64,000 bases of DNA from Candidatus Dojkabacteria bacterium (GTDB lineage: Bacteria; Patescibacteriota; Dojkabacteria; GCA-002793355), in the NCBI GenBank assembly GCA_030583825.1, contig CP129477.1:694294-758293 (forward strand), written 5' to 3'. The position numbers were made by a program, and so were the translations under genes. Below, in pieces: positions 10,593 to 63,948 of this stretch; the stretch's first letter is position 1, and every line of letters starts with the position of its first letter. The notes under the pieces were generated by a model, which saw only the letters and a list, made by a program, of their open reading frames with translations, ran no database searches and was not told the origin of the DNA.

Positions 10593-11003
10593 TTAACCTT
10601 TGCCGCGAATGCATTCGGTTTGAGACAGCCTGCCTTCATAGATAAGCCCGCGATTATTAACGCTTATGAAGGTGAAGTAGGTGTTTTCGTCTACTTTTAC
10701 GAAACAGTAACCGTCTTCGGGCATAATACCGTATGCTTCATCAAGGCTACCGCGAAACATCTGTACGTATAACATACGGGGTGTCGTCTGCATGGCTGAC
10801 AGGATATAGCCGTTACCAGTATTACCGTACAGGCTTGACCACCCGTTTAGCCATTGAAAATCGAATTCCGCTTGTCCGTCTACACTCATGAAGAACGTGG
10901 ATTGTCCATACTCAAGGGCACGAACAGGCACGGGTAACTGACGGGTTGAGCTAACTAAGGAAAAAACGAGTACAACGAGCATTAGAAAGAGCCGGGTTTT
11001 CAA
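10593..11003 (-). CDS. Hypothetical secreted protein
   Basis: The 136-aa product carries an N-terminal signal or transmembrane segment (LFLMLVVLVFSLVSS). Confidence 0.4.
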   Translation of the reverse strand: MKTRLFLMLVVLVFSLVSSTRQLPVPVRALEYGQSTFFMSVDGQAEFDFQWLNGWSSLYGNTGNGYILSAMQTTPRMLYVQMFRGSLDEAYGIMPEDGYCFVKVDENTYFTFISVNNRGLIYEGRLSQTECIRGKG

Positions 11004-11078
11004 GGTAATCCTCCCTATTTGGGAATAATAAACGTTATGCGAATTATACTATAAAACTGTAGATATAACTATAGGATT

Positions 11079-11696
11079 TTACTCTATACGGAACTCCGTT
11101 CCAGGGATAATTCCCAACTTTCCTGCATTTCCGCCTTTTATCTCCAAAACATACTGATAGGTAGATTCCGGGCCATAAAACGGACAGTTTTTCTGTGTTG
11201 CGTCAACTTGTTTACACGGAGGAACATTAGATTTTACGTCCTGAACCTTTAGTTCTTTCGATAAAAAAATAATATCGAGAGGAAATTCGACGTTTTTCAT
11301 CCAAAACGGGTAGTTTACCGCTTGTGGAAAGATAAACAACATGCCATTATATTCTCCAATTGACGGACGGTACATGTATCCTGTCTGGCGTTTCTCTTCG
11401 GTGTCGGCAATTTCTACTGTAAATACAGCCTCTGTTTGTGTGTTTTTTGTTCGCATTTTTATGCTGGAGGGCCATGGCGTAGGAGTAGGTGACTCTGCCG
11501 CAGGCGTAGATACGGGAATAAACTGTTGTATTGTCCCAAGAATACCGCTTGCTTGTTCCTGATTTTTAATAAAAAGTGAAAATACTTGTCCCAGAGCAGA
11601 AGATTGCATAAACACAAAGAGCGTAATGCCAATAAGCACAATCGGAATTAAAACGCGTACTGATTTTAGTAATTGCCAGGCAAGTTTAAAAATCAT
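11079..11696 (-). CDS. DUF192-family protein
   Basis: NGMLFIFPQAVNYPFWMKNVEFPLDIIFLSKELKV matches the DUF192 (COG1430) core GMLF...FWM.N...PLDI.F. There is also an N-terminal transmembrane helix. Confidence 0.5.
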   Translation of the reverse strand: MIFKLAWQLLKSVRVLIPIVLIGITLFVFMQSSALGQVFSLFIKNQEQASGILGTIQQFIPVSTPAAESPTPTPWPSSIKMRTKNTQTEAVFTVEIADTEEKRQTGYMYRPSIGEYNGMLFIFPQAVNYPFWMKNVEFPLDIIFLSKELKVQDVKSNVPPCKQVDATQKNCPFYGPESTYQYVLEIKGGNAGKLGIIPGTEFRIE

Positions 11697-11817
11697 TATT
11701 ATTTGTACTTTATTTAGTTGTTTGAGCTAAGATTATTATACACTTTTCGGCGTTTCTGTTAAACAAAGTATGCCAATATGCTACAATGAAGTAACATAAT
11801 TTTATTGTTTCTTAGCT

Positions 11818-12405
11818 ATGAAATATGAATTAGCACCCCTTCCATACGCATACGACGCTCTTGCTCCGGTTATCTCTGAAGAAATTATGAAATTACATCA
11901 TGATAAGCATCATGCAGCATACGTAAATGGCGCAAATGCAGCGCTCGAAAAGCTTGAAAAGGCCCGAAACGGTGAAGTCGAGATTGATATAAAAGCAGTA
12001 CTTCGCGACCTTTCGTTTAATGTGAATGGTCATGTTCTTCATCAGATGTTCTGGGAAAATATGCGCGCTCCACAAGAAAATAATGTCCCAACAGGTGCAG
12101 TAAAAGAGGCACTTGAGAAATCTTTTGGCAGTGTAGAATCATTTCAGAAGCAATTCGGTGCAGCAGCAAAAGCAGTCGAAGGTTCAGGATGGGCACTGTT
12201 AGTCGCAGATACTGATAAAAATCTAATGATGATTCAGATTGAAAAACAAAACTTTATGCATGTTGCAGGATTTACCCCGATTCTTGGTATTGATGTGTGG
12301 GAACATGCGTATTACCTAGACTATAAAAACGATCGAGGTGCATATGTTGATGCATGGTGGAAGCTTGTAAATTGGGATGATATCGAGCGCCGTCTTGCCT
12401 CCTAA
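11818..12405 (+). CDS. sodA: Superoxide dismutase (Fe/Mn)
   Basis: The product reads YELAPLPYAYDALAPVISEEIMKLHHDKHHAAYV...DVWEHAYYLDY, showing the canonical Fe/Mn-SOD metal ligands. Confidence 0.9.
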   Translation: MKYELAPLPYAYDALAPVISEEIMKLHHDKHHAAYVNGANAALEKLEKARNGEVEIDIKAVLRDLSFNVNGHVLHQMFWENMRAPQENNVPTGAVKEALEKSFGSVESFQKQFGAAAKAVEGSGWALLVADTDKNLMMIQIEKQNFMHVAGFTPILGIDVWEHAYYLDYKNDRGAYVDAWWKLVNWDDIERRLAS

Positions 12406-12456
12406 AGAGGAGAGTATTAACTTGCGGGATTGGTCAGATTGACGTATATTTAGGAT

Positions 12457-13812
12457 ATGCAGAAACTGCCTTTTCTTTACCTTTTTGCGATAGTATTTGC
12501 CGGAATTATTCTTGTTGCGGCATTTGTTGTTCCGTCAATTCCACTCCAAAGTAACAGTGTTTCATGTAATCAAGCGGCATTTCAGCTAATTCCATCTGTG
12601 CATGCACAGTCACAAACAAATCCAACAATTGTTAGTTTTACGACTTCTGCAACCTCCGTAAATGTGGGAGAGAGTGTTACGCTTAGCTGGGTAACTCAAA
12701 ATACAGATAGAGTTATTCTCGGTGGATTCGATCAAGTATTTGGCCCAAGTGGATCAGTCGAGGTAACAATGAATACTTCGAAAATTTTTGTGCTCTACGC
12801 ATTCAATGAGAACTGTTACCGACAACGTTTCGTTTTTGTTGATGCATTCGATGAAAACTCTAATCCGTTCACTCAGCCAACACTCTTAGCTGCAGGTATT
12901 GTCGCATTGGAAGCAACCGGGACAGTTGTGGCAACAGTCGCCTCTCCTATGAATGTGGCAACGTGGAACGTATGGTTCGCATTTGCTGCATTTCTTGATC
13001 GTTTACGAAAGAAAAAGCCGTGGGGTATCGTGTATAGCTCGACTTCGAAACGACCTATCTCCCGGGCAATTATTCGTTTACATGACGCAACCGATAACGC
13101 ACTTCTTGAAACAACTGTTACTGACGCACAGGGTATTTTCCGTCTCAATCCAAAGCAAGGTACCTATTACATGAAGATTACTCGTCGTGATTACTCTTTT
13201 CCATCACGTTTAGTTGCCGGCCCGAATGATGGACAATACGCAAATGTGTATAAAGGAGAAACCTTTGTTGTTCAATACGATGGCCAAGCGCTTATGTTTG
13301 CTATTCCTCTTGATGATGTAGAACTTCCCTATTGGCAGAAGTCTTTTCGCTCTTTTATGACTAATCTTGAAGCTGCTCTTCGTTGGGTCAGTGATATTTT
13401 ATTAGTTGTAGGTCTTGCCACCAGTATTGCATTCGCAATTCGCTACCGAAACCTGATTTCCTTCGCAATTTTGGGTGTGTACTTCCTGATTTTCGGCGTA
13501 AAGTTTGTATTTGCATTGATTACTCCAAAACAATACGGCGTGGTAAAAGATCAAAAGGGGAGAGTTGTCTCAAACTTGGAGCTTGGATTGTATGAAACAG
13601 AATTTAATACGCTTGTTGCCCGTACATTTACTGACGCGCGAGGCCAATACAACTTTATTGTGCCATTTCAGAAGTATAATATTCGAACGATTGATCCAAG
13701 ATACTCAATTACCGGCGATAACGTGACGTCTTTGGGTCAGCCTGTTGTGCTCCCGCAGAATAAGGGCGAAAACATTTTGTTTGTCAGCCAGGATGTGAGA
13801 GTTTCAGGGTAA
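12457..13812 (+). CDS. Hypothetical membrane protein with a carboxypeptidase-regulatory-like (transthyretin-like) domain
   Basis: It has a signal peptide. ISRAIIRLHDATDNALLETTVTDAQGIFRLNPKQGTYYMKITRRDYSFP is typical of CarboxypepD_reg-like domains, and a second similar repeat and transmembrane helices are present. Confidence 0.4.
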   Translation: MQKLPFLYLFAIVFAGIILVAAFVVPSIPLQSNSVSCNQAAFQLIPSVHAQSQTNPTIVSFTTSATSVNVGESVTLSWVTQNTDRVILGGFDQVFGPSGSVEVTMNTSKIFVLYAFNENCYRQRFVFVDAFDENSNPFTQPTLLAAGIVALEATGTVVATVASPMNVATWNVWFAFAAFLDRLRKKKPWGIVYSSTSKRPISRAIIRLHDATDNALLETTVTDAQGIFRLNPKQGTYYMKITRRDYSFPSRLVAGPNDGQYANVYKGETFVVQYDGQALMFAIPLDDVELPYWQKSFRSFMTNLEAALRWVSDILLVVGLATSIAFAIRYRNLISFAILGVYFLIFGVKFVFALITPKQYGVVKDQKGRVVSNLELGLYETEFNTLVARTFTDARGQYNFIVPFQKYNIRTIDPRYSITGDNVTSLGQPVVLPQNKGENILFVSQDVRVSG

Positions 13813-13914
13813 TTCTGGGTCTTTATAAATAAAACTCCTTACGGCTTTCTTACCAACTTCCCTAGACAATCAAAGAAATTACATAGTATAATTTAGTAGA
13901 GGGTGATAGAGTTT

Positions 13915-14490
13915 TTACTCTACATAATGCGTGTGCCAATGTGCCAGAGCATGAGGCACCCTCTTATTCATTTTTAGGCTTATCACGGACAGAAAAATTT
14001 TATTGCCCTGTTTGTCTTCTTTTAATACAACTCTTACTTTTTTCAACGTACCGTTGCTGTTAAGTACTGCATCAAAGGAATAAAATATAATACCGTATTC
14101 GAATCGAATATCTTGAATAGTTGAAGAAGTTTCAATGATAATCTTTGCTAAGGGTAAAACCCCTAATCGTTGATATACATCCTGAGGTGGGCGTTTCTTT
14201 GTTTTATTTCCGATAATATGATTCCAACCTAGAGAAGAAAATGAAACATTGCCCTTAAAGGCAGGGCAGTAAGAGTATTTTTGAGCTTTCCATGTTGAAT
14301 AGAGACGTAGCATGTCTTTTTTAAGTTCACGAAGAGAATGAGGGCTCATAGATAAAGAATACAGCCCCAAAAGTGATTGAATAAAGAATCGAAGATACCT
14401 TATATGAAGCCTATAAATAGGTAAAAAATGATTTTTACAAAAAAAAGGAGGTAGCAAAAGCATCGCTTCCACTGCCTCCCTCAAAAACAC
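13915..14490 (-). CDS. Hypothetical protein
   Basis: The 191-aa ORF lies directly downstream of thrS on the same strand. No motif was recognised. Confidence 0.35.
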   Translation of the reverse strand: MFLREAVEAMLLLPPFFCKNHFLPIYRLHIRYLRFFIQSLLGLYSLSMSPHSLRELKKDMLRLYSTWKAQKYSYCPAFKGNVSFSSLGWNHIIGNKTKKRPPQDVYQRLGVLPLAKIIIETSSTIQDIRFEYGIIFYSFDAVLNSNGTLKKVRVVLKEDKQGNKIFLSVISLKMNKRVPHALAHWHTHYVE

Positions 14491-16284
14491 TTACAAATCC
14501 AAAGCTTTACTCTGAATTTTCTCCTTTACCCGCTCGGCAAGATCATTAACTGAAATTTCTCCCAGTGATTGTCCATTTCGCAAGCGTACGTTAACAGTAC
14601 CATTTGCAACTTCCTGCTTTCCAATAACAATCATGTAGGGGACTTTTTCTTGCTGTGCTTCAAGAATTCTCTTGTTGAGTGTATTGCTTGAATCATCAAC
14701 GCTGACACGAATTCCTGGCAGAGATGCCTTCAATGAATCCACCACAGACTTTGCGTATTCCTGCTGGTCAAGGCCGATAGGAATAATGCGTACTTGTTCC
14801 GGGTGAAGCCAGACTGGAAATGCTCCAGCGAAGTGCTCAATCAAGAATGCCATGACTCTCTCAATTGCGCCAATGGAAGAGCGGTGAATAACGATCGCCT
14901 CTTCTTCTTTGCTTTCTTCGTTGATGTAGTTCAGTTTGAATCGTTTTGGCATAACAAAGTCGTATTGGACTGTGAACGCTGTATCTTCTTTTCCAAGCAC
15001 GTTTTTCATTTGAATATCAATCTTTGGGCCATAGAATGCTGCTTCGCCTTCTGCTTCGTAAAATGGTGCCTTTCTTGCCTCTAAAACACGTCGCAATACT
15101 GATTCTCCATATTCCCATGATTCATCGTCTTTAAAGTACTTTTTGTCGTCGGAACGATCACCGAGAGAAAGTCGGTAAGAGTAGTGTTCTCCTTCTTTTA
15201 GGCCGAAGGTTTCTGCAACTGCTTTAATCAGTTCGAGAACCTCGTTAATCATTTCTTGTGCTTGTTCTTTTGTACAGACGATATGGGCATCGGCCAAACA
15301 GAATGATCTCACGCGCATCAAGCCGGATAATTCGCCTGATTTTTCATAGCGATAGAGTTTTGCAAGCTCTGCAATTCTCATCGGCAATTCCTTGTAGCTT
15401 CGTGGCTTGCTCAAGTAGTACTCAAAGTGGTGGGGACATGTCATCGGACGGAGCATAAATCGCTCGTCATCAATCTCGATAGGTGCATACATCGAATCTT
15501 TGTAGTATGGGTAGTGCCCCGACTTTTGATAAAGTTCCAGCTTTGCAATATCTGGCGTATAGACGTGCAAGTATCCTCTGCGAAGCTCTTCGTCAACAAT
15601 GTAACGCTCTAATTCTCGGCGAATTGTCGAGCCTTTTGGTGTCCATAAAGGCAATCCTTTTCCAACAACGTCAGAAAATACGAATAAGTCGAGGTCTTTA
15701 CCAACTTTTCTGTGATCACGAAGTTGTGCTTCTTCCATACGCTTTAGGTAGTCATCAAGCTCTTGTTGTGAAGCAAATGCCGTTCCATAGACACGTGTAA
15801 GCATTTCGTTTTCTTCACTTCCTCGCCAATATGCGCCACCAACCGAGAGTAGCTTAAATGCTCCAATCTCGCCTGTACTTTCCACATGTGGGCCTTTGCA
15901 AAGATCTGCATAGCTTTCTCCTGTGTAGTAGAGAGAAACTTCTTTATCAGCTGCTGCAATTTCTTCAAGCCACTCAAGCTTGAATGGATTATCTTTAAAA
16001 ATTGCTTTTGCTTCTTCGTACGACACAATCTTTTTCACAATCGGTAAATCTGCAGCAATTATTTCTTTCATTTTTGCTTCGATTTTTGGTAAATCTTCGT
16101 CTGAAAGCTTTATATCCCAGCGTGCATCGTTTGACCAACCATCTTCAGAAATATGGGCAACTGCAAGCTTTACTTTGCCTGGAAACAGCTCAGTTACTGC
16201 CTGTGCAAAGACATGCTCGCACGAATGGCGAATTTTAAATAACTGTGAATCTTCAAATGCTTCTTTTTTCATGTTTTCACTCAA
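14491..16284 (-). CDS. thrS: Threonine--tRNA ligase
   Basis: The product shows RHSCEHV (editing HxxxH), YRYEKSGELSGLMRVRSFCLADAHIVC (class II motif 2) and a C-terminal anticodon-binding domain. Confidence 0.9.
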   Translation of the reverse strand: MSENMKKEAFEDSQLFKIRHSCEHVFAQAVTELFPGKVKLAVAHISEDGWSNDARWDIKLSDEDLPKIEAKMKEIIAADLPIVKKIVSYEEAKAIFKDNPFKLEWLEEIAAADKEVSLYYTGESYADLCKGPHVESTGEIGAFKLLSVGGAYWRGSEENEMLTRVYGTAFASQQELDDYLKRMEEAQLRDHRKVGKDLDLFVFSDVVGKGLPLWTPKGSTIRRELERYIVDEELRRGYLHVYTPDIAKLELYQKSGHYPYYKDSMYAPIEIDDERFMLRPMTCPHHFEYYLSKPRSYKELPMRIAELAKLYRYEKSGELSGLMRVRSFCLADAHIVCTKEQAQEMINEVLELIKAVAETFGLKEGEHYSYRLSLGDRSDDKKYFKDDESWEYGESVLRRVLEARKAPFYEAEGEAAFYGPKIDIQMKNVLGKEDTAFTVQYDFVMPKRFKLNYINEESKEEEAIVIHRSSIGAIERVMAFLIEHFAGAFPVWLHPEQVRIIPIGLDQQEYAKSVVDSLKASLPGIRVSVDDSSNTLNKRILEAQQEKVPYMIVIGKQEVANGTVNVRLRNGQSLGEISVNDLAERVKEKIQSKALDL

Positions 16285-16579
16285 TGGTTTAAATAGTTTT
16301 TGGCAATTTTAGTCAGCTGCCGGCTGTTTTTTATTATCCTCGGTACTTTCGCTAGATTATCGCAGAAATGAATGATTAAGCGAAATGCGAAAAAGGGAGA
16401 ACAATATGAAATGAATACCCCCTAAGGGGTTGTAGTCTTGTGAAAACAACGAACCATTGTAAGAAGAGAGTTTCCTACCATATTAAGAAATTATATCACG
16501 ATTGAAAAAAGAGTTCATTAAATTCTGTCACTTTTGAAAGGTTATATATGAATAAGATAGTGTCGCCTGTTTCTACTAT

Positions 16580-16599
16580 TGATACCCGTGGGGGTATAT
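16580..16599. promoter_or_regulatory. Degenerate copy of the ATATACCC-N4-GGGTATAT palindrome
   Basis: TGATACCCGTGGGGGTATAT matches 16/20 positions of the perfect palindrome at 57610-57629, with the right half identical. It sits between divergent thrS and pepF. Confidence 0.4.
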
Positions 16600-16731
16600 A
16601 AAGTGCTGACATCTCGGTTCTTTGTAAAAGTGGAAAGGGGTAGGCGGGTAGTGTAATAACTAAACGCTACAAGAAGAATCATAAATAATTATCTCAATTG
16701 AGCACTGCTGCAAAAGAATGTACAATGTACC

Positions 16732-45752: not shown

Positions 45753-45991
45753 ACTGGATATTTTACAGCAATATTCCCTTAAACAAAGTAGTATATTTCA
45801 CGGCGTATGAAACATATACGGTTTGTGTGGTTAAAACTGTGCTTAAATGGGTCAACTATATACGTTCAGTGAGATACTCTAAACATACTTGAGTGGTGAA
45901 TAAGGAAAACTATACTATGTTCTTTGGAGAGATAGAAACTTATAAATACTCTTCTTAAGGCGGTTTTTACTACGTTCTACGGGACTGATTA

Positions 45992-46011
45992 ATATACCTC
46001 TACGGGTATAT
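45992..46011. promoter_or_regulatory. Second degenerate copy of the ATATACCC-N4-GGGTATAT palindrome
   Basis: ATATACCTCTACGGGTATAT matches 16/20 positions of the site at 57610-57629. It lies in the 400-bp intergenic region between divergent genes (45752 minus and 46161 plus). Confidence 0.4.
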
Positions 46012-46160
46012 GCTGAAAAGAAAAGTATCCTTTCTTTACTCTCTCTAAGATAGTGGGTGCGATAGGAATGAATAGACTATGTGTATAGTCTTTATTGTTC
46101 TCCTTTACTTATTTTGAGGCCTCAAGTACTATTCTTATTAACTAAGTTATCTTTTTTATT

Positions 46161-47243: not shown

Positions 47244-48962
47244 CTATGGTTTCTTCTTGAGGACAAAGAAGACTCCACCGAGAATCAGGCCTCCTACGAG
47301 AGCTCCTACAGCAACAACAGTAACTATTGTTGCAATGGGAAGAGACGCTGATCCTTGGCTATCTTGCTCAGTATCTCCCGATACGGTCGGAGTTGGCGTA
47401 GTTGCATCTATTTCTTGAGTAACTGTCGGGGAAGCTACCGACGCGCTTATAGTTGCTGTAATAGGAGGAGTTACTGTTGCATTTGGATCAAACGGTGCAT
47501 TGCTTGGCAGGCGTGTTCCGCTGAGTGTTGGAACAGTCGTTGGGGTGCTTGCTGGCGTTGTTACTGTTGGATTTGTTGCGATTATTGTCGGCATATTCGT
47601 ATGTGAGGGCTGTACTGGAGGCGCGGTTGGTGCAGCTGTTGTTGGCACGATAGTTGTTATCAGTGGAGTTGCCGTGGTCATAACAGTAGTCACAACCGGA
47701 GTTGTAATTTGTGTCGGTTGCACTGTTTGGGTTGGCGCCGTGGTTTGTGTAGTAGTCGGAGAAATCGTCGTAGATGGAGCCAGGGTGCTTGTTGCAGTTG
47801 GCATTGTTGTGAGAGATGGAGAAGCTGATGGAGTTGCGGTTGCAAGTACCGTTGGAGTACTTGTAGGAATGTAATGATTTGCGAGAAATACGGGATCCAT
47901 ATAGTACGTGGAAGATAATGCGCCATACTTTTGGATTGTCTCATCAAAGTCAACAACAAAATCCCACCAGTTAGGAATTTTCTTTCCCTGATACACAAAG
48001 TTATTATTCATATTCGGCATATTTTGCATCCACCAGGTGAGGTAACCTCCCTGCGTGCATCCCCATCGTGTGCAAGTATACGCGGTTTTTTGGCCGGTTC
48101 CTTCTGGATTCCAATCTTCGCATGCGGTTAATGCAACAGAGTTGTTTCCATAGTCATAATCTGCTGCACCATTTGGTGGGAAGTGGACGTTTCCACAGCG
48201 TGCTGCTCGTGGAAATCCAACTTGGTCATTACCTCCAAAGCGATACCAAAAAAGCTCGATAGACTGTATATTTCCGAGAAGTCCTTCCATATAGTGTCCA
48301 AATGAGTGTTGTGCAAGATCATATGTTCGAGTTGTATCAAAACCCATAATTGCGAATGAGGATTCGCCATTACAAAACGGCGTATATGGTACAGTCACAT
48401 ACTGTAAGTTTGTGCGGAAAAGTGGACTAGAGATGGCATATTCAACCCCTGGGTTAGGGTCGTAACCAGTGCGCGGATCAACCCACATCCAAATTTGGTC
48501 AATATCGAGATCTTTTATCTGCTGGCAAAGATTATCTTCTGCGAGGATTGCGTTATATGTTGCAACCCAATCATTGTTAATATTTGGACGCGCTTTATTT
48601 CGATCTATAACTTTTACAATCTCTACTTGGATGCTTGGCGGTGCTCCTGGCGAAGAATATCCGCGAAATCTTGATGACTCACGAAGAGCATTCTGCAACT
48701 GGGCAGATAATGTATTTGGGTGGTTGATAACGTCAGATTGGCCTTTTGGAAAGTATCTCAGTTCAAGAACCTTCAGTGTGAGAGGGTAGGTTGTGGCTTC
48801 CGTACCTGGATCATCTGTTAAACGCGAATCTGGGACAACAATAATTGAAATTGCGACAAGAAGCACAATCGCCGTACAAATAGAAACAGCCGTAATTACC
48901 TGAGCTGGTTTAAACTGTCCTCGCGGTGGCAGAAATCGCCTGATTCTATCGCGTAAATTCAT
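47244..48962 (-). CDS. Surface protein with Cys-rich ectodomain, Thr/Pro-rich stalk and C-terminal membrane anchor
   Basis: It has an N-terminal transmembrane helix, a Cys/Trp-rich domain and roughly 200 aa of T/P/S/V low complexity (TTMPTATSTLAPSTTISPTTTQTTAPTQ...). The C-terminus has a transmembrane helix plus KKKP. Confidence 0.45.
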   Translation of the reverse strand: MNLRDRIRRFLPPRGQFKPAQVITAVSICTAIVLLVAISIIVVPDSRLTDDPGTEATTYPLTLKVLELRYFPKGQSDVINHPNTLSAQLQNALRESSRFRGYSSPGAPPSIQVEIVKVIDRNKARPNINNDWVATYNAILAEDNLCQQIKDLDIDQIWMWVDPRTGYDPNPGVEYAISSPLFRTNLQYVTVPYTPFCNGESSFAIMGFDTTRTYDLAQHSFGHYMEGLLGNIQSIELFWYRFGGNDQVGFPRAARCGNVHFPPNGAADYDYGNNSVALTACEDWNPEGTGQKTAYTCTRWGCTQGGYLTWWMQNMPNMNNNFVYQGKKIPNWWDFVVDFDETIQKYGALSSTYYMDPVFLANHYIPTSTPTVLATATPSASPSLTTMPTATSTLAPSTTISPTTTQTTAPTQTVQPTQITTPVVTTVMTTATPLITTIVPTTAAPTAPPVQPSHTNMPTIIATNPTVTTPASTPTTVPTLSGTRLPSNAPFDPNATVTPPITATISASVASPTVTQEIDATTPTPTVSGDTEQDSQGSASLPIATIVTVVAVGALVGGLILGGVFFVLKKKP

Positions 48963-54950: not shown

Positions 54951-56147
54951 ATGAAAAATGACAGGAAAAAGGTATTTGTTGCGCTTTCGGGAGGTGTGGA
55001 TAGTGCCACTGTCGCCGCAATCCTTATAGAGCAGGGCTACGATGTTACGGGCGTGTATATGAAGAATTGGTCATCAGACTTTGGTATTGCGAATAATTGT
55101 CCATGGGAAGAAGATGTTGCCGACGTAGAGAAGATTGCAGCGCATCTGGATATACCCTGGAGGGTATATAACTTTGAACGGGAGTACCGTGCTCGCGTAC
55201 TAAATTACTTTTTTTCTGAATATAAAGCAGGCAGAACTCCTAACCCTGATATCTTGTGTAATAACGCAATTAAATTCGATCTATTTTTGGAAAAGGCCAT
55301 TGCAGATGGTGCAGAGGCGATTGCGACAGGTCACTACGCACGAAGAGCAGGCTTTTCTTCTCGTTTTGAGTGGGAATATGATGCCATAGAGGGACTATAT
55401 ACTGCTGCAGATTCGCAGAAAGATCAGGGCTATTTTTTGCAGAGAATTTCGCGTGAGCAGCTTGAAAAAGCTACATTTCCTTTGGGAAACTTTGTGAAAA
55501 GTGAAGTTCGTGTACTCGCAAATCATTATTCATTGCCGGTTGCAGCAAAAAAAGACAGCCAAGGAATTTGTTTTATTGGCGATATTGATGTCAGAGACTT
55601 TCTAAAAAGAGAATTACATACAAAGCCAGGCGATATTATTGATGCAGATACAGACGAAAAGGTCGGTGAGCATAGCGGTTTATGGTTCTACACAATTGGA
55701 CAGCGTCATGGCATGGGAATAGGTGGACAGAAAACTCCATACTTTGTCGCAAAGAAGGACGCAGATACAAATATTCTTTACGTTGTGAAAGGAGCAGGGC
55801 ATACACTGCTTACTCCTAAAACAGTCGAACTTTCGGAGCTTCACGGAATTACTCGATTACCGGTAAGTGGACAGAAAATTTTTGTAAGTTTACGTTACAG
55901 AGAGCCTCCTCGAAAGGTAACGTTTCTGACGGACGAGCAGGGTAGTGCTGGAAAAATAGAGTATTCTGATACAGCATGGGCGCCGGCTCCAGGACAAAGT
56001 GCAATGTTGCTTGCCGATACAGTTTCGATGGAAATAGAAACTCCCGAGACGTCGGTCGAGCAGATAAAGAAAAAGTTACTGCGACAAGAGAAGTATCAGG
56101 AAGCAAAGCGATTTGTGCAGATTTACGGTGGAGGAGTTATCTCCTAA
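54951..56147 (+). CDS. mnmA: tRNA-specific 2-thiouridylase
   Basis: VFVALSGGVDSATVAAILIEQGYDVTGVYMKNW is the PP-loop SGGxDS motif, and the catalytic Cys is conserved (QGICFIGD). Confidence 0.9.
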   Translation: MKNDRKKVFVALSGGVDSATVAAILIEQGYDVTGVYMKNWSSDFGIANNCPWEEDVADVEKIAAHLDIPWRVYNFEREYRARVLNYFFSEYKAGRTPNPDILCNNAIKFDLFLEKAIADGAEAIATGHYARRAGFSSRFEWEYDAIEGLYTAADSQKDQGYFLQRISREQLEKATFPLGNFVKSEVRVLANHYSLPVAAKKDSQGICFIGDIDVRDFLKRELHTKPGDIIDADTDEKVGEHSGLWFYTIGQRHGMGIGGQKTPYFVAKKDADTNILYVVKGAGHTLLTPKTVELSELHGITRLPVSGQKIFVSLRYREPPRKVTFLTDEQGSAGKIEYSDTAWAPAPGQSAMLLADTVSMEIETPETSVEQIKKKLLRQEKYQEAKRFVQIYGGGVIS

Positions 56148-56911: not shown

Positions 56912-57757
56912 CTAGGAAATTTTCGACTGTAAAGGCGCTTTCTGAAATGGCGGTTTCTTCTTTGAGTATATCCCGTATTGTTTATGAAGTATCCGAAGAT
57001 ATTTTCTTGATTTTTTCTTTGATTCCACTTCGCGGGCAATATTATCACGTGTTTGCATTGATGTGAGTATCCTCTTTACAAAGGTTTGATATACCGGGGG
57101 GAGTATCTTGTAACGTTTTCCTTCGGGGGATGGTAAATTTTGGTTTACGATTTGAAGAATCACAAGCAACTGCTGGAGATCTTTATGAAGGACAGGCTTA
57201 TTTTGCTGAATATCAGTTAAAAAGCGAGAGAATAGGCTTGCTGCTTCGAGTAGAAGTTCAAATGTTCCAGTTTTAAGCGCAGCAGGATCACTCGCATGTG
57301 AAGACGCTATTGCTTCTAAATCTGCCAAGGACAGCGCTTTGGATGAAGGAATTGCGAGAGCATATTGTTTTTTAAGGTATGCTGCCAACTCAACAGTAAT
57401 TGCAATAAGAGAAAGTGCCGAGAAATGTTGAGAAGAGGGAGACGTTGTTTCTGTGGTTCCTAATGATGACAATTCTTTTGCTGCATCTGAGTCGAGATAT
57501 CCGAACATAACAGCTTTCTTTATGAGTCGTTTTGAGGAAGTTATCCTCCGTTTTGCTTGAAATGGCACAAAATCCATATATAAATTATACCACTCTCTTT
57601 TCTTGACGCATATACCCCCGGGGGTATATACTGACCCATGACCCCAGAAACAGTTGAACAAATAAAAAACCGCTTCAAACGTAGTGAAGGCCAGCTCAAA
57701 GCTGTCATAAAAATGATAGAAGAGGGAAGTGGCGATCCAAAACAAGTCATGATTCAA
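56912..57757 (-). CDS. Hypothetical protein
   Basis: The 281-aa ORF has its start overlapping the divergent promoter/operator region of the DUF156 regulator. Its real start may be an internal Met. Confidence 0.3.
   Translation of the reverse strand: MNHDLFWIATSLFYHFYDSFELAFTTFEAVFYLFNCFWGHGSVYTPGGICVKKREWYNLYMDFVPFQAKRRITSSKRLIKKAVMFGYLDSDAAKELSSLGTTETTSPSSQHFSALSLIAITVELAAYLKKQYALAIPSSKALSLADLEAIASSHASDPAALKTGTFELLLEAASLFSRFLTDIQQNKPVLHKDLQQLLVILQIVNQNLPSPEGKRYKILPPVYQTFVKRILTSMQTRDNIAREVESKKKSRKYLRILHKQYGIYSKKKPPFQKAPLQSKIS
57603..57632 (+). promoter_or_regulatory. Promoter with an embedded perfect 20-bp palindromic operator
   Basis: The -35 TTGACG (57603-57608) and -10 TATACT (57627-57632) are separated by 18 nt. 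The spacer is occupied by ATATACCCCCGGGGGTATAT (57610-57629), a perfect palindrome. The regulator ATG lies 5 nt after the -10, suggesting a leaderless transcript. Confidence 0.5.
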
Positions 57758-57868
57758 CTCAGTGCGGTCATTTCCAGCCTTGAGAATGCCAAAATCCAGC
57801 TTGTAGAAGAGTATACAAAGGCGACAATAATCAAATCTATTAGCGGAATTTCGGATTTATTGAAGTAA
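57638..57868 (+). CDS. CsoR/RcnR-family (DUF156) transcriptional repressor lacking Cys/His metal ligands
   Basis: The 76-aa product reads IKNRFKRSEGQLKAVIKMIEEG...QLSAVISSLENAKIQLVEEY, matching the CsoR/RcnR/FrmR helix pattern (RLKRIEGQVRGLQRMVEE...). The sequence has no Cys or His at all. Confidence 0.55.
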   Translation: MTPETVEQIKNRFKRSEGQLKAVIKMIEEGSGDPKQVMIQLSAVISSLENAKIQLVEEYTKATIIKSISGISDLLK

Positions 57869-58405: not shown

Positions 58406-59131
58406 ATGACCATCCTTGAGCCACTGAGCATAGTTAATTACCGATCCTTTCTTTTCAATAAAACCAACTGTCCAAATTCCATTTTCATAATTCTTTATTA
58501 TTCTCCCGACTTTAGGCGTTTACTTTCACCATTGCTACTCATTATTCTCATGACATACTTAGGTATGTTTCGATATATACCCATACTCTCAATATTTTTA
58601 ATGTTCCTGGCAATTGCGGGCGTATTTGCTTATGCTACTTTTGTACTTTTTCCAGTGCGTATTAAAGATGAATCATTTCCAAAAGCTAAAAAATCACCAC
58701 AACTCGCGCAGAAAGCAACTGAACATCTCTATGAAAATGGTGATCCAGTTCTAAAAATACCCAGGCTAAATATTAAAATTCCAATTGTGCAGGGAGATTC
58801 AGAGCAAGCAATGGTGAATGGAGTATGGCTCCGTCCAGGAAGTGCATTGCCTGATCAACAAGGGAATATTGTCCTTGCAGGGCATCGGCTTCGTATGGGA
58901 AAATCATTAGAAGAAAGCTTATTCTTTCTCGATAGAGTGGTGGTTGGTGATGAAATACACCTCCGTTGGAATAACAGTATCTACCTCTTTTTTGTGGTTG
59001 CTGTTACAATAGTTTCAGCGACAGACAGTCGTGCAGAACTGCCCCTGCTTGAGAAAACGCTCACGTTGTATACGTGTACGCCATTATGGAGCAGCAGTCA
59101 GAGATTAATTATTAGAGCAAAACCGCCGTGA
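58406..59131 (+). CDS. Sortase-family transpeptidase
   Basis: QGNIVLAGHRLRMG carries the catalytic His, LTLYTCTPLWSSSQRLIIRAK carries the TLxTC Cys and Arg, and there is an N-terminal transmembrane anchor. The real start may be the internal Met near 58550. Confidence 0.65.
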   Translation: MTILEPLSIVNYRSFLFNKTNCPNSIFIILYYSPDFRRLLSPLLLIILMTYLGMFRYIPILSIFLMFLAIAGVFAYATFVLFPVRIKDESFPKAKKSPQLAQKATEHLYENGDPVLKIPRLNIKIPIVQGDSEQAMVNGVWLRPGSALPDQQGNIVLAGHRLRMGKSLEESLFFLDRVVVGDEIHLRWNNSIYLFFVVAVTIVSATDSRAELPLLEKTLTLYTCTPLWSSSQRLIIRAKPP

Positions 59132-59721
59132 CTATTACATACGACAAAAAATTGAATGCAGCAAGAATCGAAGGAAAAGAAGGAGTTGCATTGTTCATGT
59201 ACGATAAGATTGCAACTCCAGATGCATTATTAAGCCAAAGCTTTGAAGGCATTGATATGCTCCTTGTTGTTCCCGAAAATTATGATCCATTTAATGGTGA
59301 CCATATTTTAGAATGGGCAAGAGTGACAGAAAAAATGCTGAAAGAAAAAACATTATTAGTATTTTCTCATGGAGAATACCGAATTAAGGATCTTCATATG
59401 AAGGGAATCAAGGATAGTGGCTCACTACAATTTGTAATTGAGTCTCCAGAATGTACTGTGGGGGTTTTGACAACAAAGCCTTCTGAGAGTTTTGTAAGAA
59501 AATATGTTCCGCTTGACGTTATCATTGGCCCAGAAACAGCATTGGCAGATATTCAACTCGATTTCGAGCCATTCTTTGTGGTATTAACTCAGATGACTCC
59601 GGCATACATGCAGCAAACAGGTGTTACCGAGATTAACGAAACAGGAAAAGTAACTGTTAAGAAGATTGATCCTCTTGCCCGCGAAAGTACTATTGATATG
59701 AGCGTAAGCTACCTCAAGTAA
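59128..59721 (+). CDS. Hypothetical protein
   Basis: The 197-aa ORF overlaps the sortase stop by 4 nt, so the two are probably co-transcribed. Confidence 0.4.
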   Translation: MTITYDKKLNAARIEGKEGVALFMYDKIATPDALLSQSFEGIDMLLVVPENYDPFNGDHILEWARVTEKMLKEKTLLVFSHGEYRIKDLHMKGIKDSGSLQFVIESPECTVGVLTTKPSESFVRKYVPLDVIIGPETALADIQLDFEPFFVVLTQMTPAYMQQTGVTEINETGKVTVKKIDPLARESTIDMSVSYLK

Positions 59722-59766
59722 TTTTATTCTTAGACTTGAGACAACTGGTAGTTAAAAGAGAAAACT

Positions 59767-61080
59767 ATGAGTGAGAGAATTCCGCCACACAATATAGATG
59801 CAGAAAAAAGCGTATTAGGTGCCTTTCTTATTGATAAAGACGCTCTCGTTCGTGTTGCGAGCTTCCTTCGTGCAGAGCATTTTTACGAAAAACGTCATCA
59901 GGTACTGTATCAGGCCATTATTGACCTATTTATGGCGGGCATTCCAATTGACTTGCTCACAATCGTAGACTACCTCAAAAAGAAAAAAGACCTCAAAACT
60001 GTCGGTGGACGATCATATATTGCCGATTTAATCAGTAGTGTTCCAACATCAGCACATGCGGAAGAATATGCAAGAATCGTAAAAGAGGCATCAATTCGCC
60101 GAAGGTTAATCACTGCCGCCGCCGATATTACCGACCTTGCATTTGATTCTGACAAGCCAACTGCCGATGTGTTAAATCAAGCACAGCACGATCTCTTTTC
60201 TGTCTCGGTACAGGGAATAGACAAAGGATTTATACATATTCGAGATTTACTTGAACAGTCTTATGAAGAAGCAGCACTAGTTAACTCAAGTGACTCGGGA
60301 TTAACGGGTGTTTCAACAGGTTTCAAAGATTTGGACGGATTGCTCGGCGGACTTCAGAAATCCGACCTGGTTATTCTTGCTGCGCGACCTTCCATGGGTA
60401 AAACGTCTTTTGCGTTGGATCTCATGCGAAATATTGCATTGGAAAAGAAAAATGTAGCATTTTTCTCTCTTGAAATGTCCCAATCACAGCTTTCAAACCG
60501 CCTTCTGGCGATGCAAAGCGGAGTAGGGTTGTGGGCAAGCCGAACCGGCCAACTTACTGATGATGAATTTGCCCGGCTTGGTGAAGGAATCGGTGTTCTT
60601 TCAGAACTCAATATCTTTATTGATGACCAACCTGGCCAAAATATTGTTGAGCTTCGTACAAAAGCACGACGTTTGTATCTGGAACAGGGAATTGATGCAA
60701 TTTTCATTGACTACTTACAGCTTATTCACGGAAATTCCAAAGAAGGAAGAGTCCAGGAAGTATCACAAATCTCTCAAGAACTTAAAAACATGGCACGTGA
60801 GTTAAAAGTCCCTGTTGTTGCGCTTTCACAGCTTTCACGAAAAGTAGAAGATCGAAACGATCGTATGCCTCAACTTTCGGACTTACGAGATTCTGGTTCT
60901 ATCGAACAAGATGCAGACGTTGTTATGTTTATTCACAGAGAAGACTATTACGATCAGGAAACCGAAAAGAAGGGAATTGCAGAAATTAGAATTTCAAAGC
61001 ATCGAAATGGCCCAGTTGGCAGTGTAGAGTTGGCATTTGTAAAAGAATTAGCAAGTTTCAGAAACCTTTTTAAGGATTAA
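59767..61080 (+). CDS. dnaB: Replicative DNA helicase DnaB
   Basis: N-terminal PHNIDAEKSVLGAFLID, Walker A ARPSMGKTSFAL, and Walker B / RecA-like core (IFIDYLQLI) are all present. The product is 437 aa. Confidence 0.9.
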   Translation: MSERIPPHNIDAEKSVLGAFLIDKDALVRVASFLRAEHFYEKRHQVLYQAIIDLFMAGIPIDLLTIVDYLKKKKDLKTVGGRSYIADLISSVPTSAHAEEYARIVKEASIRRRLITAAADITDLAFDSDKPTADVLNQAQHDLFSVSVQGIDKGFIHIRDLLEQSYEEAALVNSSDSGLTGVSTGFKDLDGLLGGLQKSDLVILAARPSMGKTSFALDLMRNIALEKKNVAFFSLEMSQSQLSNRLLAMQSGVGLWASRTGQLTDDEFARLGEGIGVLSELNIFIDDQPGQNIVELRTKARRLYLEQGIDAIFIDYLQLIHGNSKEGRVQEVSQISQELKNMARELKVPVVALSQLSRKVEDRNDRMPQLSDLRDSGSIEQDADVVMFIHREDYYDQETEKKGIAEIRISKHRNGPVGSVELAFVKELASFRNLFKD

Positions 61081-62862: not shown

Positions 62863-63948
62863 ATGATTCGACTAGACGCATATTTGCAACAATTCATTAC
62901 AAAAGAACATGGTGTAGAGCTTTCTCGTACATATGTTGAAAAACTACTCGAAATGGGTGGGGTAAAGCTAAATAATGAAGTTATTAAAAAGAAGGGATTT
63001 AAGTTTAACTCCGATAAGATTGCTCCGGTGATTGACGAAAAAGCGCTGGAATCAATTATTATCGAGTATCAAACAGGCAAAAGCGACGATTCCGAAGCGT
63101 CCAGCTGGTCAGCAAGCAGTATGATGACAGTATTAGATCCTGCAAAGCTTGAAAGAGCAGGGGATATATCTCCACATATCGTGCTTGAAGATGACGATAT
63201 CTTGGTAGTTTATAAACCCCCGGGGGTATTGTCTCACCCAGGAAGAGGTGACCAAAATCGAGATAGTATGGTCTACCAATTCGCAAAGTATATGGAAAAG
63301 ATCCATAAATATATTCCTCGTGCAGGTCTTTTACACCGATTGGATTTAGATACTCGCGGCTTGCTGGTATTTGCCAAGAATATGGAGTCCTACAATATTG
63401 TTAAGAAGGCATTTGAAACACGAAAGATTGAGAAGTGGTACCTTGCAATTACAAAGGCAACTCCACGGCTTAATAATCTGATTAAAAACGGTCTGGAAAA
63501 GGTTCACAGGAAGGAATTGCCACATCCGTATGAAATGTTTCGAAAAGCTGCAGGTTATGATGAAATTAAGGCGTATATGCGTTCCTTGCCTGCATTTGAG
63601 TTAGATGGATACATTGGAAAGGCAAGAGATGGCAAAAAGATGTATTTTTCTCTGGATCAGCAAATTCTCCGCAGAGATCGTATTAGCACGATGAAAAACT
63701 GCGACAGCACTATTGCAATAGCAGGGGAGTATAACAATGATATTTTTCTTTTTGTGCAGCCTCATACAGGACGCACTCATCAGATTAGGGCACAAGCAGC
63801 ATACCTGGGTGCACCCGTTAAAAACGACCGGTTATACGGCAAAACATATACCCCTAAGGGTACCCTTGGATTAATTGCATGTGCTATTTCTTTTTCACTA
63901 AAAGAGAAGCAATACAACATTGTCCTTCCTCCAAGATATTTTTCATAA
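62863..63948 (+). CDS. rluD: RluA-family pseudouridine synthase (RluD-like) with an N-terminal S4 domain
   Basis: There is an S4-like N-terminus. ILVVYKPPGVLSHPG and HRLDLDTRGLLVFAK carry the catalytic Asp in the HRLD motif. Confidence 0.8.
   Translation: MIRLDAYLQQFITKEHGVELSRTYVEKLLEMGGVKLNNEVIKKKGFKFNSDKIAPVIDEKALESIIIEYQTGKSDDSEASSWSASSMMTVLDPAKLERAGDISPHIVLEDDDILVVYKPPGVLSHPGRGDQNRDSMVYQFAKYMEKIHKYIPRAGLLHRLDLDTRGLLVFAKNMESYNIVKKAFETRKIEKWYLAITKATPRLNNLIKNGLEKVHRKELPHPYEMFRKAAGYDEIKAYMRSLPAFELDGYIGKARDGKKMYFSLDQQILRRDRISTMKNCDSTIAIAGEYNNDIFLFVQPHTGRTHQIRAQAAYLGAPVKNDRLYGKTYTPKGTLGLIACAISFSLKEKQYNIVLPPRYFS

Follow-up and report, generated by a model that had tools for sequence, protein, structure and literature searches.

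In all characterised CsoR/RcnR proteins, the signal is read by Cys and His residues that occupy set positions. Family reviews describe only sensors of Cu, Ni/Co, formaldehyde and persulfide, and in a similarity network of 32,476 PF02583 sequences clusters 6-9, holding 9.5% of the sequences, are uncharacterised (PMC8643695, PMC11672702). Here we analyse a natural clade of this family that has none of these sensory residues and keeps the canonical operator. Its representative is a protein of 76 amino acids (aa) from Candidatus Dojkabacteria bacterium (Patescibacteriota), encoded behind a perfect 20-bp palindrome that is embedded in its own promoter. The window, that is, the whole stretch of DNA analysed, comprises 64,000 nucleotides (nt) of the 1.09-Mb contig CP129477.1 (assembly GCA_030583825.1, positions 694,294-758,293 of the forward strand). 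It was compared with 12 orthologous loci from 11 further genomes of Dojkabacteria-type bacteria (L001, L003 and L005-L014; L002 and L004 are near-duplicate contigs). Broader scans for the locus yielded 3 loci in genome contigs and 1 in metagenome contigs. Motif scans cover the window and about 180 kb of the related loci, and gene neighbourhoods were compared with 11 other loci through gene tables or tblastn. The reading we prefer, with a probability of roughly 0.6, is that the protein is an autorepressor lacking the sensor site, probably a constitutive DNA binder, and that further copies of the palindrome are likely bound by the same protein.

Several described systems provide a good basis for comparison. 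The operator consensus of Streptomyces lividans CsoR (4ADZ; PMC3902906), ATATACCCCTNAGGGGTATAT, nearly equals the palindrome found here, ATATACCCCCGGGGGTATAT. In both cases TAC/GTA inverted repeats flank C/G tracts and an autoregulatory site lies upstream of the regulator gene, although the spacing is TAC-N8-GTA here and TAC-N9-GTA in the Streptomyces consensus. The two proteins share the RLXR motif of helix 1, a glutamine in helix 2 and the fold (TMq 0.81), but S. lividans CsoR regulates the copZA efflux genes and has an x-C-H-C site for Cu(I), whereas the shorter protein studied here (76 aa) reads P-Y-T at these positions. The best structural match is CsoR from Geobacillus thermodenitrificans (4M1P), with 34% identity and a TMq of 0.80. 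The non-metal members of the family are represented by CstR from Streptococcus pneumoniae (7MQ1-3; PMC8643695), which has about 85 residues and is up to 41% identical over helices 1-2; its operators are similarly AT-flanked G/C tracts, but it requires two Cys (x-C-x-C) that the 76-aa protein does not have. RcnR and FrmR from E. coli and Salmonella (5LBM, 5LCY) belong to the same Pfam family and fold and recognise G/C-tract operators flanked by TACT/AGTA, but they carry H-C-H-H or P-C-H-x and place one tetramer on each single-tract site. The nearest experimental model is the C39A/C68A variant of TTHA1953 from T. thermophilus (PMC10318464), which is Cys-free, continues to bind its 20-bp palindrome and has stopped responding to oxidant and Cu. 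In contrast to the clade described here, which is a natural one, this variant was made in the laboratory from a natural dithiol sensor, and G/C tracts are missing from its operator, TACNNTACNNNNGTANNGTA.

The CsoR-family gene occupies positions 57638..57868 of the plus strand, stop codon included, and no in-frame alternative start lies upstream of the ATG at 57638. A first-pass annotation of this DNA had described the product as a PF02583 (formerly DUF156) protein with neither Cys nor His, and both statements hold. The translation contains 0 Cys and 0 His, and the hidden Markov model (HMM) of PF02583 matches residues 7-68 (E 2.6e-13) with a score of 50.6 bits, the cut-off being 22.8; for the homologues P0001-P0005, PF02583 matches are available as precomputed results. 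Among proteins of known structure, the best sequence match is 4m1p (E 4.5e-7). The AlphaFold2 (AF2) model, built on 30 relatives, reaches a pLDDT of 94.9 and shows an all-alpha fold with the antiparallel hairpin of helix 1 and helix 2, and the top 18 PDB matches retrieved with Foldseek are all CsoR, FrmR, InrS or CstR (TMq up to 0.81). Judged by sequence, fold and operator type, the 76-aa protein is a member of PF02583. The determinants of DNA binding are also in place: R12-F-K-R15 (RLXR-type, helix 1), G18-Q19 and Q40-x-x-A43 (helix 2) are near-invariant or invariant in 30 Cys-free relatives. In S. lividans CsoR, R57A within the RLXR motif or Q81A each abolishes DNA binding (PMC3902906), and we infer that the glutamine in helix 2 is the equivalent of S. 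lividans Q81.

What the protein does not have is a recognisable sensor. Aligned to the Cys/His/Cys Cu(I) ligands of 4M1P, the X/Y/Z sensory positions are Pro34, Tyr59 and Thr63, and the residue preceding X is Asp33, where many CsoRs have Tyr. The alignment that the first-pass annotation called for thus supports the fold family and shows the ligand positions to be replaced across the clade. The signature of a Cu(I)-sensing CsoR (x-C-H-C, with copA/copZ nearby) is absent from both the protein and its surroundings, which consist of mnmA, the gene of a NAD-binding protein, a sortase gene, dnaB and rluD, with no copper genes nearby. The motifs of RcnR/InrS (H-C-H-H / H-C-H-C) and FrmR (P-C-H-x) are missing for want of Cys and His, and that of CstR (x-C-x-C) for want of Cys; no sulfurtransferase or sulfide-oxidation genes lie around the regulator in the window or in 11 related loci. 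Subfamily models of NCBIfam likewise gave scores far below their cut-offs for RicR (28.8 bits against 175) and for the FrmR equivalog (17.5 bits against 133), and both assignments were rejected. On this sequence comparison, the protein carries the sensory motif of none of the characterised subfamilies (CsoR, RcnR/InrS, FrmR, CstR).

The same replacement is found throughout a group of relatives. An identical protein is recorded from a Candidatus Dojkabacteria metagenome-assembled genome (MAG), and a profile search of 1.84 billion representatives returned 1791 family members at E <=0.001, 16 of them at E <=1e-10. In an alignment of 152 proteins, made up of the six first matches and the proteins listed by the representatives search, 36 contain no Cys at all; these are 66-122 aa long, most of them 73-88, and share the sequence Q-A-x-I-S-x-L-E-S-x-K. 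Among the eleven closest relatives (P0001-P0011), X is Pro and once Gln, Y is Tyr, Phe, Ser or Ala, and Z is variable, so that the sensory residues are missing throughout the clade and no alternative ligand-like residues are conserved at X/Y/Z. Where the source of a Cys-free relative is named it is Dojkabacteria again, apart from one MAG labelled Saccharibacteria and one labelled Flavobacterium; as far as seen, the variant appears restricted to Dojkabacteria-type bacteria of the candidate phyla radiation (CPR). The literature searched contained no description of a Cys-free CsoR-family protein or of regulators in Dojkabacteria. The clade offers a natural test case for allostery in this family, a DNA-binding scaffold without the usual switch, and the 76-aa protein is among the very few CPR transcription factors with an identifiable, if putative, binding site. 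A further feature is the C-terminal tail ...(I/L)S(D/E)LLK (window 57848-57865), which is conserved in the clade; in the wider Cys-free set most proteins end in two hydrophobic residues and Lys. This LLK tail could be a docking or degradation signal.

The promoter of the regulator gene contains the putative binding site at its centre. A -35 hexamer TTGACG (57603..57608, plus strand) and a -10 hexamer TATACT (57627..57632, plus strand), together scoring 10/12 in a promoter scan, are separated by a spacer of 18 nt. This spacer is filled by the perfect 20-bp palindrome ATATACCCCCGGGGGTATAT at 57610..57629 (core ATACCC-N4-GGGTAT, 57612-57627), which also covers the first 3 nt of the -10 hexamer. 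After TATACT follow the five nucleotides GACCC and then the ATG at 57638. The sequence bears out every element of this layout as the first-pass annotation had listed it, from the two hexamers and the palindrome to the 18-nt spacer and the start 5 nt after the -10. A palindrome search found ATATACCCCCGGGGGTATAT to be the sole perfect palindrome of at least 16 bp in the window. Markov-1 simulations yield 0.095 palindromes of at least 20 bp per window, which makes the element as a palindrome alone only mildly unlikely. It is the recurrence and conservation of the motif, more than palindromy, that speak for a real operator.

This conservation is complete among the loci compared. In all 12 other loci, from 11 further genomes, the element ATACC(C/T)-N4-GGGTAT lies between -35 and -10 upstream of the regulator orthologue, the only deviation being a spacer of N5 in L013; the operator embedded in the gene's own promoter, as initially described, is thus a feature of every orthologue. 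The -35 of these loci sits at the same offset and reads TTGAC[GCT], TTGATA or TTGCA[AT], and the -10 reads TATACT, TACAAT or TATAAT and ends 5-8 nt before the start codon in 9 genomes. While spacer bases and tract lengths vary, the operator arms are constant, and the arrangement of operator and promoter is kept in both local gene orientations. In the window and the 12 loci, the operator lies at the regulator's own promoter as is the rule in the CsoR/RcnR family (PMC3902906, PMC10318464). The first-pass annotation had seen in it the hallmark of CsoR/RcnR operators in general. The match to the Streptomyces CsoR consensus supports the first half of this assignment; with two short G/C tracts in most genomes, the operator resembles a CsoR-type ('type 2') site in sequence more than an RcnR-type single tract. 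Position, symmetry and conservation of the operator make negative autoregulation by the 76-aa protein the natural reading.

The short distance between -10 and start codon is part of a wider pattern. For 21 of the 62 open reading frames (ORFs) of at least 90 aa in the window, a hexamer agreeing with TATAAT in 5 or more of its 6 positions ends 5-8 nt upstream of the start codon, against a background of 3.8% (P about 7e-15), whereas a Shine-Dalgarno (SD)-like tetramer precedes 8 of the 62. Examples are the genes starting at 54951 (mnmA), 16732 (pepF), 8914 and 33252, and at 47244 and 49730 on the minus strand. The leaderless layout attributed to the regulator is present, but this habit of the genome makes it typical and not special to that gene. 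No report of leaderless starts in Dojkabacteria was found in the literature searched. The database gene calls of P0004 and P0005 start too far upstream (L001 6001-6069), and what they add at the N-terminus is translated operator (R-I-P-P-W-V-Y and N-T-P-W-G-I-Y). Leaderless genes are mis-started here by gene callers that rely on an SD sequence.

The operator motif is not limited to the regulator's promoter. With at most one mismatch, ATACCCNNNNGGGTAT occurs 6 times in the window, where 0.04 are expected. One copy is that of the regulator's own promoter, two lie in long intergenic regions and three are intragenic (mnmA 55152; rluD 63214 and 63848). The first-pass annotation had predicted recurrence of the palindrome at other promoters; the recurrence is there, but the sites are mostly off promoters, and three of the five other copies are intragenic. 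The intergenic copies have their cores at 16582 and 45994, each about 150 nt from the next start codon. The first, TGATACCCGTGGGGGTATAT (16580..16599, core perfect), is located in the 447-bp region between thrS and pepF, 150 nt upstream of pepF, and does not overlap the leaderless promoter of that gene; the second, ATATACCTCTACGGGTATAT (45992..46011), lies in a 408-bp intergenic region. A full 20-bp copy, ATATACCCTGGAGGGTATAT, is found within mnmA (55150..55169), where it encodes D-I-P-W-R-V-Y. rluD contains two copies. Site A, AAACCCCCGGGGGTAT (63214..63229), encodes K-P-P-G-V and is present in 5 of 7 rluD orthologues, and site B, ATACCCCTAAGGGTAC (63848..63863), lies about 100 nt before the rluD stop and is present in all 7.

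The codons used at these intragenic sites are informative. To write site A the gene employs AAA CCC CCG GGG GTA, with codon frequencies of 10% for CCC, 19% for CCG and 10% for GGG. A codon alignment of the 7 rluD orthologues shows an invariant codon in only 4 of 96 columns with an invariant residue, and two of these four are the ACC and GGT arms of site B, which are 15% and 20% codons, respectively. Between the arms both residues and bases vary (P-K, Q-G, P-R, H-T, H-E), as does the spacer. A synonymous-codon shuffle that kept every protein and the codon usage gave about 0.1 expected sites with at most one mismatch for the coding regions of the window, where 3 are observed. The 148 kb of coding sequence from 8 genomes contain 20 intragenic sites, where the shuffle predicts 0.94 and none of 500 shuffles exceeded 4; perfect sites number 6, with 0.044 expected. 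By these codon statistics, it is the DNA sequence of the intragenic copies that is under selection. Intragenic copies held against codon preference are unusual for the family and suggest a function beyond simple promoter repression, in the vicinity of the genes for the replicative helicase and the rRNA pseudouridine synthase.

Several candidates for additional sites or signals were tried and rejected. The variant of the motif with a 5-nt spacer occurs twice in the window, where 1.09 are expected, and thus shows no enrichment; for this reason the element near 16415 (ATACCCCCTAAGGGGTT) was left out of the site count. Internal promoters at the two sites in rluD were dismissed, as no -35 lies at the right offset, and the TAnnnT that follows the rluD arms is accounted for by conserved G-T-L or V-L/S-S residues. 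At the gathering threshold, Rfam scans of the window and 10 related loci returned only tRNA-Leu.

Taken together, we envisage the following mechanism. The 76-aa protein, a homotetramer by family precedent, would bind ATATACCC-N4-GGGTATAT, which covers the spacer and the beginning of the -10 in the promoter of its own gene. Occupancy of this place would exclude RNA polymerase and result in negative autoregulation, and in the window it would probably interfere with the back-to-back promoter of a divergent gene for a 221-aa protein as well. Given that X, Y, Z and the residue before X are replaced across the clade, the known chemistries by which Cu(I), Ni/Co, formaldehyde and persulfide release family members from DNA cannot operate in this protein. 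The most likely mode is constitutive binding set by the concentration of the protein itself, which is plausible because the TTHA1953 double mutant introduced above binds DNA yet responds to neither oxidant nor Cu (PMC10318464). The same protein most likely occupies the extra palindromes, including the conserved rluD copies, where it could act as a roadblock, bridge distant sites or control unannotated transcripts.

A number of points weigh against this picture. Function, as regards both binding and expression, is read throughout from sequence. In the AF2 monomer helices 2 and 3 are continuous, so that the canonical tetramer is not assured, even though we would not trust a continuous helix 2-3 in a monomer model of an oligomeric protein. 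Tyr59 and Glu57-Glu58 are well conserved in the closest relatives and, like the conserved ...SDLLK tail, could serve another input. Furthermore, none of the copies beyond the regulator's own promoter overlaps a recognisable promoter of an annotated gene in the window; a repressor role at these copies is therefore not apparent, and a classical promoter regulon is not supported by them.

The main alternative, less likely but possible, is a signal-responsive repressor with a new kind of input, in which the same autoregulatory operator would be occupied or vacated depending on a signal. As inputs one may consider an oxygen-donor ligand or pH (Asp33, Glu57, Glu58, Tyr59), a partner protein, or the ...S(D/E)LLK tail as a site of docking or regulated proteolysis. 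In its favour, the CsoR-family proteins characterised so far are all inducible sensors (PMC11672702). Strong conservation is seen among the closest relatives for V-E-E-Y-T-K and the C-terminal LLK, and the regulator adjoins the gene of a 197-aa protein and dnaB whichever way it faces, which is a hint of a specific physiological link. However, Y is Ser or Ala in P0009 and P0010, and in the wider Cys-free set it is Q, E, K or R; with Z variable and X Pro no candidate ligand set is conserved across the clade. The Glu before Y is frequent in Cys-containing relatives too and hence not specific to the clade. A different and speculative idea, which we hold to be improbable, is that the Cys/His-free clade is not a sensor at all but a small, sequence-specific chromosome-organising or roadblock protein whose symmetric tetramer would bridge dispersed copies of one palindrome of 16-20 bp. 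If so, two identical DNA-binding faces would join the regulator's own promoter, the rluD and mnmA copies and the long intergenic regions, and expression of the dnaB-rluD cluster, with its roles in replication and ribosome maturation, would be tied to the protein's own concentration. In that case a metal-sensor fold would have given rise to a new functional class, and this in a genome that has very few regulators.

Two further explanations concern the palindromes themselves. They might be the target of another factor or RNA-level elements, that is, mRNA hairpins of 6-8 bp, with the CsoR-like gene merely adjoining one copy. Most extra copies are intragenic and so transcribed, and each could form a stem with a tetraloop, but in 13 of 13 loci the copy at the regulator's promoter is located between -35 and -10, upstream of the predicted transcription start. 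This copy also moves with the gene on inversion and is a near base-for-base match to a proven CsoR operator, and no T-tract or other RNA signal is found at the sites, all of which renders the explanation very unlikely. Least probable of all appears to us the assumption that the copy at the regulator's promoter alone is functional and the others are by-products of peptide motifs (K-P-P-G-V, I-P-W-R-V-Y) and base composition. It would agree with site A of rluD encoding the conserved K-P-x-G motif of pseudouridine synthases, and with the copies in mnmA and the gene of the 221-aa protein lying at non-homologous positions in different genomes. The synonymous shuffle, which holds the peptides constant, argues against it (20 against 0.94 for all sites, 6 against 0.044 for perfect ones), as do the ACC/GGT arms of site B, which are invariant in 7 genomes while the residues between them change.

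The non-coding regions around the two intergenic copies (16285-16731 and 45753-46160) each exceed 400 bp in an otherwise compact genome and contain one operator copy each. Permissive Rfam scans of both yielded nothing credible and no convincing small ORFs were seen beside the copies; the regions may hold unannotated RNAs. In three genomes operator copies also occur in the gene of an amine-oxidase-type flavoprotein, which is absent from the window (L012 12728, 12822 and 13337; L003 147; L014 3101). In L012 this gene contains two perfect copies 94 bp apart and a third with 1 mismatch.

The divergent gene for the 221-aa protein (56912..57577, minus strand, stop codon included) is a conserved neighbour: of 11 loci compared, 8 have its orthologue beside the regulator (L001, L003, L005, L006, L007, L009, L012 and L014). 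It has an extended -10, TGGTATAAT (57584..57592, minus strand), 6 nt before its ATG at 57577, and the place of the corresponding -35 directly adjoins the operator's left arm. The window thus presents, between 57578 and 57637, two back-to-back leaderless promoters 60 bp apart with a single palindrome between them. The layout of -10, 6 nt and ATG is also found for the divergent gene in L001, L005, L006, L007 and L011, but in L001 the operator is farther from the divergent promoter, so that the overlap of promoter and operator is not general. The gene itself carries a weak operator-like copy with 2 mismatches, ATACCGGGGGGAGTAT (57091..57106), and its orthologues in L003 (5568) and L012 (8701) carry copies too, at non-homologous positions. 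The 221-aa protein has no Pfam match and only a weak, sub-threshold match to the NCBIfam MobP3 relaxase model (16.6 bits against a cut-off of 150). Its C-terminal basic motif S-K-K-x-x-K-(K/R)-Y-L-R-I-L-x-K-x-x-G-I-Y-x-x-K-K-P-P-F is conserved, while the middle of the protein is variable.

On the other side of the regulator, the gene of the 197-aa protein followed by dnaB forms a conserved block (59128..61080, plus strand). dnaB adjoins the regulator in 11 of 11 other loci, co-directionally in 9 and divergently in L012 and L014. The 197-aa query matched 8 of the 11 loci; L008, L010 and L013 carry a gene for a protein of 180-213 aa in its place, and the substitutes in L010 and L013 match Lactamase_B_3. 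After this block usually follow tRNA-Leu, the gene of a zinc-ribbon protein and rluD. In L012 (7753-8228) and L014 (7801-8282) the regulator gene and its promoter are flipped in place with the adjacency kept. That the regulator stays adjacent despite the inversion speaks for a functional tie, but shared gene order in a single lineage is weak evidence by itself.

A gene-free gap of 340-650 bp follows rluD in every related locus (L001 11848-12300; L005 from 17056 onward; L008 13455-13815; L010 14706-15045; L013 6670-7319; L012 2588-3175), whereas the window ends 52 nt after rluD. A shared element in these gaps as a possible target of site B was not found, as the gaps neither align with one another nor match Rfam. 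In L005 (CP129470.1, a complete Dojkabacteria genome of 888 kb), about 3.9 kb separate the start of dnaB from the next conserved gene (10895-14797), against about 1.6 kb in the window. This difference points to inserted sequence within or behind dnaB, for instance an intein or an additional gene.

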